Source: a virus
Lineage: Duplodnaviria > Heunggongvirae > Uroviricota > Caudoviricetes
IMG/VR virus record: IMGVR_UViG_2534681766_000004
Reading direction: 5' to 3' (one strand)
Length of the DNA: 9,487 nt
The position numbers were made by a program, and so were the translations under genes. This document shows, piece by piece, positions 1-9,487 of this stretch (position 1 is the first letter of the stretch; the number at the start of each line of letters is the position of its first letter). The notes under the pieces are model-generated. The model ran no database searches and had not been told where the DNA came from. It saw only the letters and a program-made list of their open reading frames with translations.

Positions 1-21
1 TGAGGCAGGGAAACGCATGCA

Positions 22-54
22 AAGCCATGCACCTTATCGATGCATGGCTTTTTT
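22..54. terminator. Hairpin terminator just 3' of psu, possibly bidirectional
   Basis: Perfect 10-bp inverted repeat aagccatgca / tgcatggctt (22-31 and 41-50) with a 9-nt loop, followed by TTTTTT at 49-54 on the + strand. On the minus strand it lies just downstream of the psu stop at 85-87. Confidence 0.4.
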
Positions 55-84
55 CAGTAAAAACGGGCGGATTTTCGGGGAATT

Positions 85-642
85 TTACACAGACTGACGT
101 GATGCCAGTTGCGCACTTTTACGCGAAAAAATCATGTTCTGCGCAGGAGTGAATTTTTCACGGCTGTCATCCACCGAAGCCGCGTCAGGCCTGAATCCGA
201 TGGCCGTTAAAATGTCGCTATCCTGTACGGAATAATTAATTTTTTCACCCTTCGCAAGCCAGGACAGAAGGGCTTCACGCAGGGCATCTGTGGCACGCTG
301 TATGGCACAGTTTCGGGCAATGGCCGTCAGCTCACTGTAGCCCATCAGCTCCGGTGCCAGTGCCGCCGCCAGTGCTGTGCCGTGCTGCTGCATAAAATCA
401 TTCAGCCGGTCGCGGATGCTGATGTGCTGAACGGCTTCATGCGAACGAATATAACGACCAGCGGCCTGATTCACCTGCCATTTTCTGACTTCGATAATAT
501 TGCGTAATTCGTCCAGGCGACTGACGTTTCTGCCTTCTCCTGACAGAAGCCGCAGATATTCCTGTTCGGCCGCTGCCAGCTCATTTTTGCGTTGCAGCCA
601 TGCTGCTTTGTTATTCTGACAGGTGTCAAAGGCCTGCTGTAG
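85..642 (-). pseudogene. psu: Polarity suppression protein Psu homolog, 5'-truncated with no in-frame canonical start codon
   Basis: The minus-strand frame is open from 666 down to the stop at 85-87. From codon 640-642 it reads LQQAFDTCQNNKAAWLQRKNELAAAEQEYLRLLSGEGRNVSRLDELRNIIEVRKWQVNQAAGRYIRS..., which I recognise as Psu-like. Upstream of 642 the frame runs into antisense alpha-derived sequence and hits a stop at 667-669 with no ATG/GTG/TTG; the first possible start is the internal GTG at 472-474 (the 129-aa ORF in the track). Confidence 0.55.
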
Positions 643-736
643 CCCCGCAGGAGCGCGACCCGCAGCTTAAGGACAAAATCACCCGCGAGCTGGCGGTCAT
701 CGTGCGTCACCTGATGCAGAAGTTCAGCGACCCGAT
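640..736 (+). repeat. Ectopic 97-bp exact copy of an internal alpha gene segment, overlying the delta/psu junction
   Basis: 640-736 is base-for-base identical to 6399-6495 in the same orientation (compared by hand). The flanking bases differ on both sides: 639 g vs 6398 a, and 737 t vs 6496 g. Confidence 0.9.
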
Positions 737-1212
737 TGTGTTTTTAACCGTACTGGCGGCAGTTCCTGTTTTTCATGCAGGCGTTCTGCCAGTTCGTCCG
801 GTGTGACCGGGCGGACAATGAAGCGGTTGATGGTCTGAAGCGTTTTAAACACCAGACCACAGCCCGGATCCGTGCACACATAAAAACGCTCGGTGACTTC
901 CTGAGACAGACGCCGCGATGTTCTTGACAGCGCAAGGCCTTTACATCTCCGACAACAATATCCGGTAACAAGCATTCTTTTCGGGCGTTTCATGCTACCG
1001 GAGGCTGACGTCAGTGAATCGCGGTATCTCTGTTTGCCTGAAATGTATTCCATTCCTGAATCTTTACAGTCAGAGAAAAAGCTTTCACTCGCTTCAAATG
1101 TCGCAGAGCAATAAATATTCCGGCACTGTGCAATCATTATCTTGGTGCCATCGTCCATGAAATGTGCGCGACGGGTGTGAGCAACATGTCCACACGACGG
1201 GCAGTAAATCAT
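724..1212 (-). CDS. delta: Delta late-gene transcriptional activator (tandem Ogr-like zinc-finger protein), C-terminus altered
   Basis: 162-aa ORF with two Ogr-type C-x2-C-x22-C-x4-C zinc-finger units (MIYCPSCGH...CRNIYC and YCCRRCKG...CTDPGC). Its ATG at 1210-1212 overlaps the sid stop (ATGA). The last codons and the stop (724-736) lie inside the alpha-derived 97-bp segment. Confidence 0.8.
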   Translation of the reverse strand: MIYCPSCGHVAHTRRAHFMDDGTKIMIAQCRNIYCSATFEASESFFSDCKDSGMEYISGKQRYRDSLTSASGSMKRPKRMLVTGYCCRRCKGLALSRTSRRLSQEVTERFYVCTDPGCGLVFKTLQTINRFIVRPVTPDELAERLHEKQELPPVRLKTQSGR

Positions 1213-1943
1213 GACAGCAGTCCTCTGGCCTTAAGCTCTGCTCCCTGCTGGTCTATTTTGTCCTGCCACACCTTGCGCTGTGCCGGTGTGCCTGCCACCT
1301 CATAATCCATGTGCGGGAGTGTTGCCGCTGACAGTCCGGTCAGCCGGAGAACCGGCTCGCCGGTGAGGCTGATTTGCATCTGTTTTATTTTCTGTTCCAG
1401 CGATGATTTCACCTGCTGCATGACAGCTTTATCGGGTGCGACGTAGCCCTGATGCCCGGTGGTGTTGGCGAGCGGATTTTCCTGTACCAGAATGCTCAGA
1501 TGCATTGCCCGGACAAGCGCCTCACAGGTTTCATTCAGGGCGTGTTCCAGCTCATGCTCTGCATACAGACTCAGCAGGTGATGATGTGCCTTCCGGTAGG
1601 CGGTGGCCGTGCTGTCACACGCCCCTTTCAGGCGTTCACGTTCGAAATTCAGCACCACGGCCAGATTGTCATATTCCTGTACCAGCTCCCGGCGTGCCAC
1701 GCGCTCAATGTGGCGCTGTTTCAGCTCGTCGCTCAGGACACCACCGGCTGCACGAAAGGCCGTGCGCCAGTCGTCAGCGTCGTTTCCGTCGGCCTGCGCC
1801 AGCGCATTTTTTTCCTGCTCTGCCCGTTCAATGGCCGTGACGGTCTCATCCATCAGGCGGGCGTTCTCAAGATGGGCGGCTCTGGCCTTTTCCAGTTGTG
1901 CCAGCGCGGGTTGCAGATATTCAGGGATGGTGTTGTCAGACAT
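1209..1943 (-). CDS. sid: Sid external scaffold (capsid size determination) protein
   Basis: Minus-strand ORF. The ATG at 1941-1943 gives 244 aa starting MSDNTIPEYLQPALAQLEKARAAHL..., preceded by a GAGGAG-like Shine-Dalgarno. The protein is coiled-coil-like and alanine/glutamate-rich. The 266-aa version in the ORF track is an upstream in-frame extension. Confidence 0.85.
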   Translation of the reverse strand: MSDNTIPEYLQPALAQLEKARAAHLENARLMDETVTAIERAEQEKNALAQADGNDADDWRTAFRAAGGVLSDELKQRHIERVARRELVQEYDNLAVVLNFERERLKGACDSTATAYRKAHHHLLSLYAEHELEHALNETCEALVRAMHLSILVQENPLANTTGHQGYVAPDKAVMQQVKSSLEQKIKQMQISLTGEPVLRLTGLSAATLPHMDYEVAGTPAQRKVWQDKIDQQGAELKARGLLS

Positions 1944-1968
1944 TTTCCGGCTCCTCGTCACTTCAGGT

Positions 1969-2033
1969 TGAGAAAATTGTGACGTACACCGGACAACAAC
2001 ACGACGCATTGCAGATGTGCCAGCCCTGACACA
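1969..2033 (-). promoter_or_regulatory. Psid-like late promoter with two Delta/Ogr-type TGT-N12-ACA boxes
   Basis: TGT-gacgtacaccgg-ACA at 1978-1995 and TGT-gccagccctgac-ACA at 2016-2033, centres about 38 bp apart, directly upstream of sid on the minus strand. P2/P4 late promoters use TGT-N12-ACA activator sites. Confidence 0.5.
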
Positions 2034-2112
2034 GGAGACTCATCCTCAGACCGGCAAGCCAGGAAAAGGTCGCAGGAAAAACCGGCTTACTGTTTGTTTT
2101 TTTATATTTTAC

Positions 2113-2216
2113 TGTTCACCTCTGTTAACCATAAGAAAAAAGATAAGTAATACAGTAAGTTAAAGGGTGAACAATCGCAGTAATGACTGTTCACCGTCTG
2201 TTCACCACTGTTCACC
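2113..2216. repeat. Replication origin (ori1-like) iteron cluster, alpha-binding TGTTCACC octamers
   Basis: TGTTCACC at 2113-2120, 2188-2195, 2199-2206 and 2209-2216; the variant TGTTAACC at 2123-2130; the reverse-complement GGTGAACA at 2166-2173. The region is AT-rich and non-coding, about 4.8 kb from the crr repeats downstream of alpha. Confidence 0.7.
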
Positions 2217-2351
2217 CGTTGATGGGCTTTTTATGCTGTTTATTACTGTTTATTTTTATTAATTCACTGAAATAAATAAGAAAAAACAATTTGCATTTCA
2301 CTATAAAAAATTCCAGTTCCTTCAGAACCCTTTGAGACCCTTCCAGTCCGG

Positions 2352-2543
2352 ATGGATAAAAAACACACAGCCATTGTAAGGTTGCCGGAACAAATTCCCC
2401 CTGTTGCGTCTGCTGAAAATATTCACAAAATAAAGCGCTACCCGAAGCCGGACGGACTTATCCGGTGCTGTATGGACATTAACGAGGTAGCCCGATGCAA
2501 GCTGTTTTTTCTTCCCCGTCTCCCGCCCCTGTTACGCCACTGA
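2352..2543 (+). CDS. Hypothetical small protein (63 aa); may instead be untranslated leader or immunity region
   Basis: ORF in the track with no convincing Shine-Dalgarno; it overlaps the better-supported downstream gene by 49 bp in another frame. Confidence 0.2.
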   Translation: MDKKHTAIVRLPEQIPPVASAENIHKIKRYPKPDGLIRCCMDINEVARCKLFFLPRLPPLLRH

Positions 2544-2761
2544 TGCCGCTGCCGGACATCACGCAGGAGCGTTTTTTACGTCTGCCGGAAGTGATGCACC
2601 TGTGCGGCCTGTCACGCTCGACCATCTATGAACTCATCCGTAAGGGGGAATTTCCGCCGCAGGGGAGTCTTGGCGGTAAAAATGTGGCCTGGCTGCACTC
2701 TGAAGTCACCGCATGGATGGCCGGGCGCATTGCCGGACGCAAACGGGGGTACGACGCATGA
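2495..2761 (+). CDS. AlpA/Vis-family small helix-turn-helix regulator (88 aa)
   Basis: Contains [28 protein letters not shown], typical of the AlpA / phage excisionase-like HTH family. GAGGT Shine-Dalgarno 6 nt before the ATG at 2495. Its stop overlaps the next ATG (ATGA at 2758-2761). Confidence 0.75.
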
Positions 2762-3348
2762 TGATGCCCGCTCTGCAAAAACTCCCTTTTTCTGGCTTGC
2801 CTTTTTCCGGCATTTGCGGATATAGTTTTTCCGCTGCCGCAAAATCGGCAGCCGGGCGTGAGAACCCGAGTATGTTATCGGCGACATATGACGCGCCATG
2901 CGTCTTTTTTTGTGTCGCAATCAACGCCACAGAGCGCCAGATTATGGTGTGGCGTGTGGTTTGCCGTGCAGGTATGATCCTGTTCGCAATCGCATGTTAT
3001 GCCACTGAGTCAATGGTAGCTCAGGCGGGGCAGCCTCCGGGCTGGCCGGTATCCGATAACGCCGGTATTCTCACCCCCGTCTGGGCTATCGCCATCGAGC
3101 GTGAGAACTCCGGCGATAGCGTCATTTACGCTGTTATCGGAGGTTGCCTTATGGCTACGACCCTTACCCCCTCACACCCTGAATTTGTCTTTGTGTTTGC
3201 GGCTGTCCGTCGCGCAGACCGTCATCCCCGTATCTGTATGCTTCGCACCGTCGCCGGTGATGAACGCAGCGCCCGCCGTTCCCTTGTCCGTGACTATGTG
3301 CTCTCCCTTGCTGCCCGTCTGCCGGTGGTGGAGGTGTCCCGTGCGTAA
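2758..3348 (+). CDS. Hypothetical protein (about 196 aa)
   Basis: ATG at 2758 overlaps the stop of the upstream gene, and its own stop overlaps the next start (GTGCGTAA). The composition of this frame is more protein-like than the overlapping +2 frame (3101-3340), which is P/L/S/C/R/W-rich. Confidence 0.5.
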
Positions 3349-3628
3349 TAAAAAAGCCCCTCAGACCGTCTCAGCGCGTCATGACGCCCGTGAACACCTC
3401 AGCATTGAGGCTTACCATAAGCTCAACCGCGCCAGCGCCGTATCCCGGTTTGTTGGGGGTGATTTGATTCACCGTGAACTCTCCGGCCTGCATCAGCTCT
3501 ACATTCCGCATATTTTCAGCTACCTGAATGAAGATATTGATTTTGTGCTGAATGAACTGAAAGCCAAAGGCCTGTGCCGCGATTTTCTCGCCCAGCAGAA
3601 AGACCGGGGAGACAGGACGCATGTTTGA
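3341..3628 (+). CDS. Hypothetical small protein (95 aa, GTG start); position and size would fit a P4 epsilon-type gene, not verified
   Basis: GGAGG Shine-Dalgarno 7 nt upstream of the GTG at 3341. There is no internal Met, so the start must be non-ATG. Its stop overlaps the next ATG (ATGTTTGA). Confidence 0.5.
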
Positions 3629-4076
3629 TTTTCCCCAGCCCGGTGAGATTTACCGTTCTGCCGGTTTTCCCGATGTGGCCGTGGTCGGCATTCTGGAAGA
3701 CGGTATTCCGTGGGAAATGCCGTACCGCTGCCCGGAAATTGTCTGGAACCCGTACCGCCGTAAATTCAGTATCCTTGTGCGTATCCTCGCCGACGGGCGC
3801 ACCACAGACATCCCGCTGGGGCGTTTTCTGCGGGAATTTACCTGTGACCGTCCTGACCTGTTTAAACGCAGCCCCGTAAACCGGCATGCGGTACTGAAAG
3901 AAATGGCCGGAGACCCGGAATTACAGAAATGGCGGGAGAAATATCTGGATATTTACCCGCAGGACCCTGTTCCGGTCAGCCGGGCGGCACCGGTGGCGCG
4001 GGAATGGCGGGAAATTCCCCGCACGGAGCCTGACCCGGAAACCACCCCGGATAACAGTTACCGCAATTATCTGTAA
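3621..4076 (+). CDS. Hypothetical protein (151 aa), orf151-like
   Basis: ATG at 3621 is coupled to the upstream stop. The length equals the P4 orf151 that sits upstream of alpha in my recollection; function unknown. Confidence 0.6.
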   Translation: MFDFPQPGEIYRSAGFPDVAVVGILEDGIPWEMPYRCPEIVWNPYRRKFSILVRILADGRTTDIPLGRFLREFTCDRPDLFKRSPVNRHAVLKEMAGDPELQKWREKYLDIYPQDPVPVSRAAPVAREWREIPRTEPDPETTPDNSYRNYL

Positions 4077-4211
4077 TTAAAAAACGACCCCCGAAAAATT
4101 AAATGTGCGTATTCGCGCAGGGATACGCACGTCTTCAGGAGACGCAGATATGCCTTATCAGTTAATGCAACCGGCACGGAATGCAGTCATCTGTCACAGG
4201 GAGGAAAACAA

Positions 4212-4532
4212 ATGAAAACACCCTTACCGCCCGTCTTACGCGCTGCCCTTTACCGTCGCGCTGTCGCCTGTGCCTGGCTGACCGTGTGCGAACGTCAGCA
4301 CCGCTACCCGCATCTCACCCTTGAGTCACTGGAGGCGGCCATCGCCGCTGAGCTGGAAGGCTTTTATCTGCGCCAGCACGGTGAGGAAAAAGGGCGTCAG
4401 ATAGCCTGTGCCCTGCTGGAAGATTTAATGGAATCCGGCCCCCTGAAGGCCGCGCCGTCGCTGTCCTTTCTCGGGCTGGTTGTGATGGATGAACTCTGTG
4501 CCCGTCACATAAAAGCGCCGGTACTGCACTGA
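4212..4532 (+). CDS. Hypothetical protein (106 aa)
   Basis: GGGAGG Shine-Dalgarno about 7 nt upstream of the ATG at 4212; it ends 14 bp before the alpha start. Confidence 0.6.
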
Positions 4533-4546
4533 AGGAGAACTACACC

Positions 4547-6880
4547 ATGAAAATGAACGTAACCGCCACCGTCAGTCATGCGCTCGGCCACTGGCCGCGT
4601 ATTCTCCCGGCGCTGGGGATTCAGGTGCTGAAAAACCGTCATCAGCCCTGTCCGGTCTGTGGCGGGAGTGACCGCTTCCGTTTTGATGACAGGGAGGGGC
4701 GCGGCACCTGGTACTGCAATCAGTGTGGTGCCGGTGACGGCCTGAAACTGGTTGAAAAGGTGTTTGGTGTCTCCCCGTCCGACGCGGCCACAAAGGTGGC
4801 TGCCGTGACCGGCAGCCTGCCCCCGGCTGACCCGGCAGTGACGGCTGCCGCCGGTGCTGAAACAGACGCTGCCCGGAAGAACGCCGCCGCACTGGCACAA
4901 ACCCTGATGGCGAAAACCCGTCCCGGAACCGGTAACGCCTACCTGACCCGCAAGGGCTTTCCCGGCCGGGAATGCCGGATGCTGACCGGCACACACAGAG
5001 CCGGTGGCGTGAGCTGGCGTGCCGGTGACCTTGTGGTGCCACTGTATGACGACAGCGGCGAACTGGTTAACCTTCAGTTAATCAGTGCTGACGGCCGTAA
5101 GCGCACCCTGAAAGGCGGGCAGGTCAGGGGCACCTGTCACATCCTTGAAGGACAGAATCAGGCCGGAAAACGTCTGTGGATAGCGGAGGGATACGCGACC
5201 GCACTTACCGTGCATCACCTGACCGGTGAAACGGTGATGGTGGCGCTTTCTTCCGTGAATCTCCTTTCTCTGGCCAGCCTTGCCCGGCAGAAGCATCCGG
5301 CCTGTCAGATTGTCCTTGCTGCTGACCGTGACCTCAGCGGTGACGGCCAGAAAAAAGCCGCCGCAGCCGCAGATGCGTGTGAAGGTGTTGTTGCCCTGCC
5401 GCCGGTCTTCGGTGACTGGAATGATGCCTTCACGCAGTACGGCGGGGAAGCCACCCGTAAGGCCATTTATGATGCCATCCGGCCACCGGCTGAAAGCCCG
5501 TTCGACACCATGAGCGAAGCGGAGTTTTCCGCCATGAGTACCAGCGAAAAGGCCATGCGTATCTATGAGCATTACGGCGAGGCGCTCGCGGTCGATGCCA
5601 ACGGCCAGCTTCTGTCCCGCTATGAAAATGGTGTCTGGAAGGTGCTGCCGCCACAGGACTTTGCCCGGGATGTGGCCGGGCTGTTTCAGCGTCTGCGCGC
5701 GCCGTTCTCCTCCGGGAAGGTGGCCTCCGTGGTGGACACCCTGAAGCTGATTATTCCGCAGCAGGAAGCCCCCTCCCGCCGCCTGATTGGCTTTCGTAAC
5801 GGCGTGCTCGACACGCAGAACGGCACGTTCCACCCGCACAGTCCGTCACACTGGATGCGCACCCTGTGCGATGTGGATTTCACCCCGCCGGTGGACGGTG
5901 AAACGCTGGAGACCCACGCCCCCGCGTTCTGGCGCTGGCTTGACCGTGCCGCCGGTGGCCGTGCGGAAAAACGCGACGTGATTCTGGCCGCACTGTTTAT
6001 GGTGCTGGCAAACCGCTACGACTGGCAGCTCTTTCTGGAGGTGACCGGTCCCGGCGGCAGCGGCAAAAGTATCATGGCCGAAATAGCCACCCTGCTGGCC
6101 GGGGAGGATAACGCCACGTCGGCCACCATTGAGACGCTGGAATCCCCGCGTGAACGTGCCGCGTTAACTGGCTTCTCACTGATACGCCTGCCGGACCAGG
6201 AAAAATGGAGCGGCGACGGAGCCGGACTCAAGGCCATCACCGGCGGCGATGCAGTGTCCGTTGACCCGAAATACCGGGATGCGTACTCCACGCACATCCC
6301 GGCGGTGATTCTGGCCGTGAACAATAACCCGATGCGCTTCACCGACCGCAGCGGCGGCGTGTCACGCCGGCGGGTGATTATTCACTTCCCGGAACAGATA
6401 GCCCCGCAGGAGCGCGACCCGCAGCTTAAGGACAAAATCACCCGCGAGCTGGCGGTCATCGTGCGTCACCTGATGCAGAAGTTCAGCGACCCGATGCTCG
6501 CCCGGTCACTGCTTCAGTCCCAGCAGAACTCAGACGAGGCACTGAACATCAAACGGGATGCCGACCCGACGTTTGATTTTATCGGCTATCTGGAAACCCT
6601 GCCGCAGACCAGCGGCATGTATATGGGGAACGCCAGTATCATCCCGCGTAATTACCGTAAATACCTCTATCACGCCTATCTGGCCTACATGGAGGCAAAC
6701 GGCTACCGGAATGTACTCAGTCTGAAAATGTTCGGGCTGGGGCTACCGGTGATGCTGAAGGAATACGGACTGAATTACGAGAAGCGCCATACCAAACAGG
6801 GGATACAGACCAACCTGACGCTGAAAGAGGAAAGCTACGGCGACTGGCTGCCAAAATGTGACGACCCTGCAACAACCTGA
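4547..6880 (+). CDS. alpha: Alpha protein: bifunctional DNA primase / helicase with C-terminal origin-binding domain
   Basis: 777-aa ORF with an AAGGAG Shine-Dalgarno. N-terminal zinc-binding primase motif CPVCGGSDRFRFDD...WYCNQCG; a Toprim-like segment; Walker A GPGGSGKS; the conserved RRRVIIHFP...DPQLKDKITRELAVIV motif typical of D5/P4-type primase-helicases. Antisense ORFs inside it are GC-rich noise. Confidence 0.95.
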   Translation: MKMNVTATVSHALGHWPRILPALGIQVLKNRHQPCPVCGGSDRFRFDDREGRGTWYCNQCGAGDGLKLVEKVFGVSPSDAATKVAAVTGSLPPADPAVTAAAGAETDAARKNAAALAQTLMAKTRPGTGNAYLTRKGFPGRECRMLTGTHRAGGVSWRAGDLVVPLYDDSGELVNLQLISADGRKRTLKGGQVRGTCHILEGQNQAGKRLWIAEGYATALTVHHLTGETVMVALSSVNLLSLASLARQKHPACQIVLAADRDLSGDGQKKAAAAADACEGVVALPPVFGDWNDAFTQYGGEATRKAIYDAIRPPAESPFDTMSEAEFSAMSTSEKAMRIYEHYGEALAVDANGQLLSRYENGVWKVLPPQDFARDVAGLFQRLRAPFSSGKVASVVDTLKLIIPQQEAPSRRLIGFRNGVLDTQNGTFHPHSPSHWMRTLCDVDFTPPVDGETLETHAPAFWRWLDRAAGGRAEKRDVILAALFMVLANRYDWQLFLEVTGPGGSGKSIMAEIATLLAGEDNATSATIETLESPRERAALTGFSLIRLPDQEKWSGDGAGLKAITGGDAVSVDPKYRDAYSTHIPAVILAVNNNPMRFTDRSGGVSRRRVIIHFPEQIAPQERDPQLKDKITRELAVIVRHLMQKFSDPMLARSLLQSQQNSDEALNIKRDADPTFDFIGYLETLPQTSGMYMGNASIIPRNYRKYLYHAYLAYMEANGYRNVLSLKMFGLGLPVMLKEYGLNYEKRHTKQGIQTNLTLKEESYGDWLPKCDDPATT
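6399..6495 (+). repeat. Native copy, inside alpha, of the 97-bp segment duplicated at 640-736
   Basis: Identical to 640-736. Here it is in frame within alpha and encodes a conserved primase-helicase motif (APQERDPQLKDKITRELAVIVRHLMQKFSDP), so this is the original and the copy at 640-736 is the ectopic one. Confidence 0.9.
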
Positions 6881-6896
6881 CCCTCATGACTCATCT

Positions 6897-6921
6897 GACC
6901 GGCATCTGCCGGTCTTTTTTT
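6897..6921 (+). terminator. Rho-independent terminator of the alpha operon
   Basis: Stem gaccggc (6897-6903) pairs with gccggtc (6908-6914) around a 4-nt loop, followed by TTTTTTT at 6915-6921, 17 bp after the alpha stop. Confidence 0.6.
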
Positions 6922-6939
6922 ATCCCGATATCCCCCGCA

Positions 6940-7240
6940 GGTGAACAATCCACTGTTCACCCTTCACCGTATATTCACCCGTTATCATACTGAAATTAAA
7001 AGAGAAAAACGAAAGGTGAACAGTGTGAACAATCAAATCAAAAAAAACTTTTTTTCTCCCTGTGTGATTTCAGTACGGGGGATTAATCACCGGTATGAGT
7101 CACACCGGCAGAATGCCGGAGGTGAAGAATCGAATGTTCACCCTTCACCCATTATTCACCACCTATCATACTGAAATAAAAGGAGAAAACAGAAAGGTGA
7201 ACAGTGTGAACAGTTCTTTCGAAAAAAAAATTTTTTCCTG
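6940..7240. repeat. crr (cis replication region): two direct repeats of about 108 bp carrying TGTTCACC / GGTGAACA iterons
   Basis: Repeat 1 (about 6953-7062) and repeat 2 (about 7134-7240) align closely (..tgttcacccttcacc..tcatactgaaat..aaaggtgaacagtgtgaaca..poly-A/T). Each carries several octamers matching the ori iterons. The 77-aa ORF at 6941-7174 is a translation of these repeats. Confidence 0.75.
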
Positions 7241-7289
7241 TACGATATAGCATCAATCCAAGTAAAAATGCGCTTTCATTTCACATTAA

Positions 7290-7400
7290 CTTACAGCCAT
7301 TGGTATACGATTAGGTATACGCACAAAAAATGAATTAAACAAAATCATTAAAAATCAAAGCAATACAATATTTATTCAAACTCCGCCAGCCAATATTGAT
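7290..7400. other. Possible attP-like region (AT-rich, short direct repeats, tRNA 3'-end-like stretch)
   Basis: Tandem GGTATACG at 7302-7309 and 7314-7321; repeated AAATCA; ttcaaactccgccagcc at 7377-7393 loosely resembles a tRNA T-loop/acceptor 3' half. Position between crr and int is where attP lies in P4. Weak and unverified. Confidence 0.2.
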
Positions 7401-7426
7401 GTACTGAAGTTCAGTAAAGTCTACTA

Positions 7427-7460
7427 AGCCCGCACAGCACAAGCTCTGCGGGCTTTTTTA
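7427..7460 (+). terminator. Rho-independent terminator upstream of int
   Basis: Stem agcccgca (7427-7434) pairs with tgcgggct (7447-7454), followed by TTTTTT at 7455-7460. Confidence 0.5.
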
Positions 7461-7515
7461 CGTCTATTGTAGTCTAGTGAGAATTGCTGAGAACTACGAG
7501 TTATGGCACCCTGAA

Positions 7516-7553
7516 TGGGACCCACGAAGATGGGTCCTAAAATCGAGGGTCCC
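7516..7553 (+). promoter_or_regulatory. Inverted GGGACCC / GGGTCCC repeats in the int leader, overlapping its Shine-Dalgarno
   Basis: gggaccc at 7517-7523, gggtcct at 7532-7537 (6 of 7) and gggtccc at 7547-7553. The last overlaps the GAGGG Shine-Dalgarno of int, so pairing could sequester the ribosome-binding site or form a protein-binding site. Confidence 0.3.
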
Positions 7554-7557
7554 AAAC

Positions 7558-8787
7558 ATGGCCAAAATCGCTAAGAAGCTCACTGACACTGAAATCAAAA
7601 GCACCAACCCTGCCGAAAAAGAGGTTAACCTTTTTGACGGCGATGGTTTGCTGTTGCGAATCGCTCCCCTGGCGAAGGGAGGGAAGAAAAATTGGTATTT
7701 CAGATATGCAGTGCCTGTGACCAAAAAGCGAACTAAGGTGAGCTTAGGAACCTATCCTCACCTTACACTTGCGAAGGCACGAGCTTTACGTGATGAATAC
7801 TTGTCGTTGCTTACAAATGGTATAGACCCCCAAGTTCATAACAACCAAAAAGCCAATGCACTGAAAGATGCCACGGAACATACATTTCAAGCAGTAGCCA
7901 AGAAGTGGCTTGATGAGAAAGTCAAAACGTCAGGCATCTCCCAAGATCATGCTAACGACATCTGGCGAAGCCTAGAGAGAAATATCTTTTCCACATTGGG
8001 TGATACCCCAATTAAGGAGATTCGCCCTAAAATGCTTAAACAGCATTTAGAACCCATAGAAAAACGAGGGGTCCTTGAAACACTTCGCCGCATCATATCC
8101 CGCCTGAATGAAATTTTCCGCTATGCAGCAACAGAAGAACTCATAGAATTCAACCCGGCAGACAACCTGGGGCAACGGTTCAGCAAGCCAAAAAAACAGA
8201 ATATGCCAGCATTACCCCCTTCCGAACTCCCTCGCTTCTTGGTTGCTCTAAACAATGCTTCTATCCGTTTGGAAACAAGGCTACTGATTGAGTGGCAACT
8301 TCTCACATGGGTTCGCCCAGGTGAAGCTGTTCGCACAAGATGGTCAGATATTGATATTGAAACTGGCATGTGGAACATCCCGGCGGAGTTTATGAAAATG
8401 AAGAAGCCTCACAAAGTTCCACTGAGCAAAGAAGCTTTGCGAGTTTTGGATTTAATGAAAGTCATCAGCGGGCATAGAGAGTGGGTGTTCCCCAGTATCA
8501 AAGCTCCACTCAATCACATGCATGAACAAACAGCTAATGCGGCCATAATCCGTATGGGTTTCGGAGGTGAGCTTGTAGCTCACGGTATGCGATCCATTGC
8601 TAGAACGGCTGCTGAGGAGTCTGGCAAGTTTAGGACTGATGTCTTAGAAGCCGCCCTTGCCCACTCGAAGAAAGATGAAATAATTGCAGCCTACAATCGT
8701 GCAGAGTATCTCACTGAACGGGTGGTTCTCATGCAATGGTGGAGTGACTATGTTTCGTCTCAAAAATGCAAAGTTATTGCCGCATAA
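7558..8787 (+). CDS. int: Tyrosine site-specific integrase, P4 family (N-terminal arm-binding domain plus C-terminal catalytic domain)
   Basis: 409 aa from the ATG at 7558 (MAKIAKKLTDTEIK...) with a GAGGG Shine-Dalgarno. N-terminal arm-binding-like region (GLLLRI...KNWYFRY...LGTYP); catalytic signatures VRPGEAVRTRWSDID, HGMRSIART (HxxR) and AAYNRAEY (nucleophile Tyr). The upstream in-frame extension from 7477 begins right after a stop and is not credible. Confidence 0.9.
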   Translation: MAKIAKKLTDTEIKSTNPAEKEVNLFDGDGLLLRIAPLAKGGKKNWYFRYAVPVTKKRTKVSLGTYPHLTLAKARALRDEYLSLLTNGIDPQVHNNQKANALKDATEHTFQAVAKKWLDEKVKTSGISQDHANDIWRSLERNIFSTLGDTPIKEIRPKMLKQHLEPIEKRGVLETLRRIISRLNEIFRYAATEELIEFNPADNLGQRFSKPKKQNMPALPPSELPRFLVALNNASIRLETRLLIEWQLLTWVRPGEAVRTRWSDIDIETGMWNIPAEFMKMKKPHKVPLSKEALRVLDLMKVISGHREWVFPSIKAPLNHMHEQTANAAIIRMGFGGELVAHGMRSIARTAAEESGKFRTDVLEAALAHSKKDEIIAAYNRAEYLTERVVLMQWWSDYVSSQKCKVIAA

Positions 8788-8849
8788 CTCTCCCATGATG
8801 GATTAACTATCTTGATTTAGTTAAAGAATTAATAATCACACCATTAACC

Positions 8850-8899
8850 TATGTGGACTAAGCATAGCCATTTACAAATGGGGACATTGAGTCCACATA
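8850..8899. repeat. Perfect 10-bp inverted repeat with 30-bp spacer between int and the recombinase gene
   Basis: tatgtggact (8850-8859) and agtccacata (8890-8899) are exact reverse complements, in an AT-rich non-coding spacer. Confidence 0.6.
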
Positions 8900-9069
8900 A
8901 CGAAAGCTGTCGGTCATATCAGCTAAATAATTCACATCTCTTCTCGATTATCATACACCTCGAAGATCTACCAAATTCGCTCTAATCAATGATAAAACAG
9001 TTGAATTCGGTTGAAATTTGATCAATTTTATCCACTACATTGTATTGAATCATCCATGAGGTTTCGTGC

Positions 9070-9487
9070 ATGGCTAGCGAAAATGACAAAAATCATAGAG
9101 TTAGGGTCGCGCAGTACTTGAGGATGTCTACCGACCATCAGCAATATTCTTTACATAATCAGTCCGAATATATCAAAGATTATGCTGAAAAGAACAATAT
9201 GGAAATCGCTTATACCTACGATGATGCAGGTAAGAGCGGAGTCAGTATCGTAGGCAGGCATTCTTTGCAGCAGTTACTTAGCGATGTAGAACAAAAGAAA
9301 ATAGATATACAGGCTGTATTATTTTATGATGTGAGCCGTTTTGGTCGTTTTCAAAATAGTGATGAAGCGGCATATTATCCCTTTCTATTTGAGAGAAATG
9401 GTGTAGATCTTATATATTGTTCCGAACCTATACCCACTAAAGATTTCCCTTTAGAGTCCTCTGTTATACTGAATATAAAAAGATCTA
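9070..9487 (+). CDS. Serine recombinase-like protein (resolvase/invertase-type catalytic domain), 3'-partial
   Basis: ATG at 9070 with a GAGG Shine-Dalgarno 8 nt upstream; the frame is open to the window end (139 codons). Translation RVAQYLRMSTDHQQYSLHNQ...DDAGKSG...RHSLQQLLSDVEQKKIDIQAVLFYDVSRFGR matches the serine recombinase N-terminal motifs (Y-x-R-x-S-T-x-x-Q nucleophile region, D-x-x-SG, R-x-x-L-x-x-LL). It is absent from the ORF track because it has no stop within the window. Confidence 0.6.
   Translation, partial: MASENDKNHRVRVAQYLRMSTDHQQYSLHNQSEYIKDYAEKNNMEIAYTYDDAGKSGVSIVGRHSLQQLLSDVEQKKIDIQAVLFYDVSRFGRFQNSDEAAYYPFLFERNGVDLIYCSEPIPTKDFPLESSVILNIKRS

Follow-up and report, generated by a model that had tools for sequence, protein, structure and literature searches.

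The delta/psu junction of a P4-like satellite contig from Escherichia coli 2730350 carries an exact copy of an alpha segment in place of native sequence

The window analysed here, a stretch of 9,487 nucleotides, is the complete public contig APXD01000093.1 of the draft assembly GCA_000356325.2 of E. coli 2730350. Its positions 1 to 7236 are 97.4% identical to P4 (NC_001609) and carry the core set psu, delta, sid, alpA and alpha in conserved order together with the P4 immunity RNA, the combination by which a P4-like satellite is recognised. The genes psu, delta and sid lie on the minus strand and are followed by the ori and immunity region; alpA/vis, cI-icd, epsilon, orf151, orf106 and alpha come next on the plus strand, and then the crr repeats. 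Pfam matches were obtained for Psu, Ogr_Delta, Phage_AlpA and the primase-helicase domains. The P4 immunity RNA region (2820-3096) is intact, with three Rfam matches above gathering scores (c4-a1b1, 2820-2872; isrK, 2833-2910; C4 antisense RNA, 3009-3096). The crr repeats are direct repeats of about 120 bp (6935-7056 and 7116-7237, 82% identical) that match the cis-required replication region of P4. Directly after the alpha stop, the window has a 9-bp insertion, CTCATGACT (6883-6891), relative to P4, Tig228 and STEC308; because E3 has a near-identical insertion, it is regarded as a natural variant that lies just before the alpha terminator hairpin.

The right third of the contig (7237-9487) is not P4-derived. 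It contains a second tyrosine integrase (7477-8787), about 80% identical to an integrase of phage phi467 whose annotation reads 'Prophage CP4-57 integrase' intA, and at 9070-9487 a resolvase gene begins, of which 418 nt are present. Both genes are part of an adjacent island in the relative L005 (GCA_049988625.1), an island with the resolvase, two ParB genes and a type I RM system that is arranged in tandem with the satellite, beside smpB/ssrA. At the boundary between satellite and island, the window has CAAT at 7391-7394, which L005 lacks; five extra bases (CACCA) are found there in Tig228 and E3. This indel may lie in the att region. The satellite's own integrase is beyond the left contig end. 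Position 1 itself falls in a stretch that is conserved across P4-like relatives (compared with L015 9890-10000 and L005 5330-5435), about 130 bp short of cos GTGCTTTCCCCGCCTCGCC, a position that hints that the assembler met competing satellite copies.

The features that bear on the delta/psu junction are as follows.

1 to 639: A-type arm (psu plus 84 bp downstream), 100% identical to satellites at tRNA-Sec (selC), for example STEC308
85 to 641, minus strand: psu remnant with codons 6-190 intact; Pfam Psu match over frame residues 6-185
600 to 806, plus strand: 68-aa open reading frame (ORF) antisense to psu and delta, in which the filler is read in the frame of alpha
640 to 736, plus strand: ectopic copy of the alpha segment, recognised as an exact repeat and by alignment to P4, Tig228, E3 and L005
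724 to 1212, minus strand: delta, 162 aa against 166 in the native form; exact protein WP_032245275.1, found on one contig only
737 to 7236: B-type backbone (delta, sid, ori, alpA/vis, cI-icd region, epsilon, orf151, orf106, alpha, crr), of the ssrA type represented by L005
6399 to 6495, plus strand: native source of the copy, in frame within alpha (residues 618-650)

A repeat search of the whole window identified 97 nt at 640-736 that are 100% identical to 6399-6495, in direct orientation and 5,759 bp apart. The runner-up is the pair of known crr repeats (122 nt, 82%), and all other repeats are imperfect chance matches of at most 31 nt; thus, an exact match of 97 nt is not explicable by chance. 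The 30-nt flanks of one copy were aligned locally with those of the other and compared with 20,000 random pairs; the P values were 0.67, 0.95 and 0.67, none of them significant. Self-comparison of the window thus confirms an exact copy with sharp edges, as the earlier note on this DNA had claimed. For the stretch just inside the right junction the same procedure gave P = 0.05-0.07, which is not significant, and the suggestion that imperfect homology extends there (CAGCGA..GAT) was dropped on this permutation result. TA (640-641) and GAT (734-736) occur alike in the native delta/psu sequence, in alpha and in the window. Because the two motifs are also part of the native delta/psu sequence, the filler was trimmed from 97 to 92 nt: its unambiguous alpha-derived part is, on this alignment, 642-733, and the TA and GAT at the edges are best read as junctional microhomology.

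The copy within alpha is identical in P4 and E3 and differs by one SNP in Tig228, and elsewhere the segment is confined to alpha in other genomes. Since the segment in alpha is in its native place, and P4 and the E. coli relatives have a different, native sequence at the delta/psu position, it is the copy at 640-736 that is ectopic, as had been supposed from the window alone. It had also been supposed that the segment encodes, in frame, a conserved primase-helicase motif. The segment is indeed in frame, but the named motif does not hold: residues 618-650 fall between the Pfam matches to DUF5906 (500-608) and Pox_D5 (670-768).

Alignment to P4, Tig228, E3 and L005 shows that 111 native bp have been exchanged for 92 alpha-derived bases (identical to alpha 6401-6492), with a net change of -19 bp. 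These native bases do not vary among P4, Tig228 and E3, and L005 has one SNP in them. Lost with them are the last six codons and the stop of delta, a spacer of 73 nt, and the Shine-Dalgarno sequence, ATG and first five codons of psu. The flanks of the native P4 junction (NC_001609, record 10814-10888 plus flanks) are 97-100% identical to the window, which also resembles P4 in the order sid-delta-psu, the zinc fingers of Delta and the conservation of Psu residues 6-190; unlike P4, it has 92 nt of alpha for the 111 bp, a Psu without initiation and a Delta of 162 instead of 166 aa. The joints show 2 nt (TA) of microhomology on the left and 3 nt (GAT) on the right. According to our own calculation with a geometric model, a summed microhomology of at least 5 nt has P ~0.005 under arbitrary cut-and-paste. 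The proposal that the copy sits where delta should end and psu should begin, between normal flanks, is upheld by the alignment to P4 and its relatives, and so is the view that sequence was substituted there and not simply inserted. A length-preserving swap, which had been proposed as well, is contradicted by the 19 bp lost on balance, and flanking homology of only 2-3 nt does not suit gene conversion; illegitimate recombination and assembly chimera, both named earlier, are still live explanations.

The native and the patched sequences in the mRNA sense fold no better than their shuffles (z = -0.41 and +0.48, respectively). Thus, the idea that an RNA structure or a terminator within the native 111 bp stalled replication, or was functionally replaced, was rejected. 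A consensus scan detected no promoter-like or terminator-like sites within 640-736. No target-site duplication is present at the patch, and no inverted termini were reported by the repeat search. Insertion of an IS or MITE mobile element is ruled out, because the patch is a replacement with net loss and no target-site duplication, and because the segment occurs only in alpha in other genomes.

Psu is an inhibitor of Rho and a capsid decoration protein. Upstream of its intact codons 6-190, the psu frame of the window contains a stop and then AAGRAPAG-LQQAF..., with no ATG, GTG or TTG, and the first canonical in-frame start is a GTG at 474, which is codon 62. The filler offers no in-frame rescue start; its GTG at 710 opens a 79-aa ORF that is out of frame. 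As read from the sequence, full-length Psu is predicted to be no longer makeable, with no usable start before codon 62. A product initiated at codon 62 would miss helix alpha1 and the coiled-coil tip including D49, which are Rho contacts (PMC11718236). In the public record, psu is called as a 170-aa product (85-597, minus strand) that starts with CTG (codon 21).

Delta is affected only at its C-terminus, where ...KTQSYSLRLE* has become ...KTQSGR*; six residues are lost and two gained, and the filler supplies the new end. The 162-aa protein keeps both of its Ogr/Delta zinc-finger units. The 68-aa ORF on the opposite strand is on record as hypothetical protein EC2730350_2706 [Escherichia coli 2730350] (GenBank ENA81713.1); it most likely arose as a by-product of annotating the patch. 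The lesion in psu is predicted to be tolerable because psu ends the sid-delta-psu operon, and because psu pseudogenes and psu-less P4-like elements are documented (PMC8628076). As psu is the last gene of the operon, no polar effect is expected.

When the native 111 bp are restored, the window aligns end to end to L005 with 99.8% identity. Positions 737-9487 are 99.97% identical to L005, with three SNPs and one 4-bp indel in 8.75 kb; on the psu side there are 11 SNPs, all at 10-526. The A-type arm differs from the B lineage at these 11 sites, and the B backbone differs from the A type at 36 sites over 737-2281 (753-2300 in the reconstructed ancestor, where the sites lie between 767 and 2300). 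The same 11 psu differences are found in three B-lineage genomes (L005, L011 and L014), which indicates that in this contig it is the A-type psu arm that is derived. The interval in which the switch between the two parental satellites took place (526-748) encloses the patch, a coincidence with a chance of about 0.03 (222 of ~7,236 bp). In the reconstructed ancestor, the A and B types share a SNP-free zone at 527-766, that is, 240 bp of perfect homology. The combination of an A-type psu, the native junction and a B-type delta has no exact match among complete genomes (best 99.4%), a comparison of limited power since the B backbone is itself rare there (best 98%). The filler and the lineage switch most probably came from one event, or from one error. 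The coincidence of the patch with the switch of parental lineage is a point that the earlier note missed.

A second form of Delta occurs among the relatives. In L007, L008, L010, L012, L013 and L021, an 81-aa Ogr-like Delta with a single unit (for example L007 6382-6657) replaces the 166-aa Delta with two units, and only 14-23 bp separate it from psu. Homology between this sub-lineage and the P4 type breaks at CTGCTGTAA, which is the left joint of the patch; CTGCTGTA lies at the psu 5' edge. The break at CTGCTGTAA may reflect the start of psu conservation or may mark a recurrent exchange boundary.

The patched junction is a singleton. The flanks are present in 1,073 of the 5,426 complete E. 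coli genomes searched, and in none of these (0 of 1,073) are they contiguous with the patch; the best 40 of the 1,073 records all span 320 bp, the native length. When junction flanks and alpha segment are counted together, the number of matching places per matching E. coli genome has a median of two and a maximum of eight. The left joint has no matches in IMG/VR, the GTDB species representatives or the JGI metagenome contigs, and the right joint has none in IMG/VR. Among about 15 billion proteins, the cluster of the 68-aa ORF has no other member, and the junction proteins were not reported from the Logan re-assemblies. A search of the literature for the accession and for strain 2730350 found nothing useful. 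In the genomes and collections searched, the patch is no conserved feature of P4-like satellites; it is either a one-off scar or a misassembly.

These data bear on several explanations of wider scope. Deliberate editing, either after deposition or as laboratory engineering of the satellite, could account for an exact copy with sharp edges; however, editing after deposition is excluded by the intact public contig, which equals the window in length to the base, with its junction ORFs in GenBank and RefSeq, so that the copy must have been in the deposition and was not added later. Furthermore, the backbone is that of a wild ssrA-type satellite with its adjacent island and not that of laboratory P4, and the joints show no cloning sites or scars; the probability left to editing is close to negligible. 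A native conserved feature of a P4-like sub-lineage, such as an alternative delta/psu intergenic module, would accord with the psu 5' boundary CTGCTGTAA as a natural module boundary, where the lineages with an 81-aa Delta lose homology. The same 97 bp in P4-type relatives had been named earlier as the finding that would speak for a native feature, and the survey of the 1,073 genomes came out negative, as did the searches of IMG/VR, GTDB representatives and JGI contigs. The single-member ORF cluster, the restriction of the 162-aa Delta to one contig, the native 111 bp kept by the closest relatives and a psu left without a start all point the same way, and a sub-lineage feature is highly improbable. 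Hardly more can be said for a regulated or recurrent overwriting of the junction, by homologous gene conversion or by a targeted copy made through a reverse transcriptase in the manner of a DGR. Direct-orientation copies of about 100 nt would be of a suitable size for the template and variable repeats of a DGR, but the two copies are 100% identical, with neither adenine-specific nor other mismatches, and the called genes of the contig include no reverse transcriptase or RVT domain. The outcome destroys a start codon and diversifies no coding region, donor and recipient share no flanking homology that gene conversion could use, and the arrangement was never seen in the 1,073 related genomes; this mechanism is very unlikely.

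The two explanations that carry most of the weight are an error of assembly and an event of repair. An artefact of draft assembly or finishing, judged to be a serious possibility with somewhat less than an even chance, would mean that the psu of an A-type satellite at selC was joined to the delta of a B-type satellite at ssrA across their shared repeat, and that no such molecule existed in the cell. On this reading, strain 2730350 would carry two P4-like satellites, and the short-read assembler or a gap closer would have filled the join with a misplaced piece of alpha of roughly read length; a filler of 92-97 nt would indeed be close to a 100-nt Illumina read. The singleton status of the junction in all collections searched and the enclosure of the patch by the parental switch interval (526-748, chance ~0.03) are consistent with such an error, as are a short contig that ends in conserved P4-like sequence on one side and inside a resolvase gene on the other, and the presence of a median of two and up to eight matching places in matching E. 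coli genomes. Misassemblies at repeats are, moreover, far commoner than complex indels in vivo. However, a simple chimera at a repeat would retain the native 111 bp, and the filler is left unexplained. Joints with overlaps of 2-3 nt should be unattainable for assemblers based on overlaps or k-mer graphs unless they were present in the reads, which also favours repair, and it is very improbable that a library molecule was chimeric twice over and came back, with its orientation unchanged, to within 19 bp. The edges of the copy miss the A/B SNPs in alpha, of which the nearest are at 6370 and 6736, and a collapsed-repeat unitig bounded by such SNPs was rejected for this reason. The distances from the joints to the diagnostic SNPs are 115 nt and 14 nt, and no single k-mer size fits both.

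The preferred alternative, which is given about an even chance, is that the patch is a one-off scar of illegitimate recombination in the P4-like satellite of E. coli 2730350, neither functional nor conserved. The data show the anatomy of the patch, its uniqueness, its effects on the genes and the parental switch; we infer both its occurrence in vivo and the pathway of repair, which might have run as follows. A break or a stalled fork would have arisen in the 240-bp zone at the delta/psu junction, and repair would have proceeded without using the homology. The delta-side end of an ssrA-type (B) satellite would have been linked with the psu arm of an A satellite, the selC type, and the joint would have passed through 92 nt copied from alpha, 5.8 kb away, with the two switches guided by microhomology of 3 nt (GAT) and 2 nt (TA). 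The pathway could be a double template switch similar to MMBIR or FoSTeS, or microhomology end-joining with templated or captured filler.

Repair in vivo is favoured by the abrupt edges of the exact 97-nt copy, by the 99.8% end-to-end fit to L005 once the 111 bp are restored, and by the 2 + 3 nt of microhomology at the joints (P ~0.005). The source of the filler is the same replicon, its orientation is direct, and the strand is back within 19 bp of its point of departure, which further favours repair; such a filler with a return near the departure point is a hallmark of polymerase template switching or filler-DNA repair. The meeting at the patch of A-type bases 1-639 with a B-type remainder, and the tolerable nature of the psu lesion, also argue for it. 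The case for repair is weakened because the joint is carried by only one short-read draft contig of the 2013 era, and because it lies in the SNP-free zone at 527-766, where misassemblies concentrate. A further weakness is that 240 bp of perfect homology at the site make a non-homologous joint in vivo unexpected, and the contig end in conserved P4-like sequence hints at several satellites confusing the assembler. The complete lack of divergence (0%) between the two copies implies that the event was very recent or was not biological.

A more far-reaching version of an event in vivo, considered rather unlikely, is a real but imprecise exchange of modules between co-resident or co-infecting satellites, in which the psu 5' edge CTGCTGTAA would be a recurrent site of breakage and rejoining. 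If this is true, the psu-cos arm would be swapped at CTGCTGTAA through non-homologous template-switching repair, sometimes at the cost of psu.

By sequence, the anatomy of the patch is what would be called a microhomology-mediated templated insertion-deletion. Like the events ascribed to MMBIR or FoSTeS and to alternative end-joining with filler in E. coli, it combines a deletion with an insertion copied in cis, with 2-3 nt of microhomology and no long homology; unlike them, it joins two satellite lineages, and does so inside a 240-bp zone of perfect homology, for which homologous recombination is the expected route. It also shares with short-read repeat chimeras a joint in the SNP-free A/B zone, a position at the haplotype switch, a short contig and a sole record; unlike ordinary chimeras, the shared sequence is not kept, and 92 nt are imported from 5.8 kb away with joints of 2-3 nt. 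Variants that lack psu are frequent among P4-like elements, and 8% carry a psu pseudogene (Moura de Sousa and Rocha, PMC8628076). The contig resembles the psu-less 'Type B#06' elements and the psu pseudogenes in that the other core genes are present and psu is inactive; it differs from most psu-less variants, in which unrelated genes occupy the place of psu (PMC8628076), in that the body of psu is intact and its initiation region is overwritten by self-derived DNA.

The contig does not represent a new genetic system; it is one more psu-defective P4-like element or an artefact. If it is an artefact, a truncated Delta (WP_032245275.1), a Psu that is mis-called at its N-terminus and a spurious protein (ENA81713.1) have spread into the protein databases. 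If the patch is real, it would be a clear-cut case, arisen naturally in E. coli, of two phage satellites joined at microhomology through a templated filler, one that silences the Rho inhibitor Psu, and it would be of modest value for studies of satellite mosaicism and of illegitimate recombination in bacteria.
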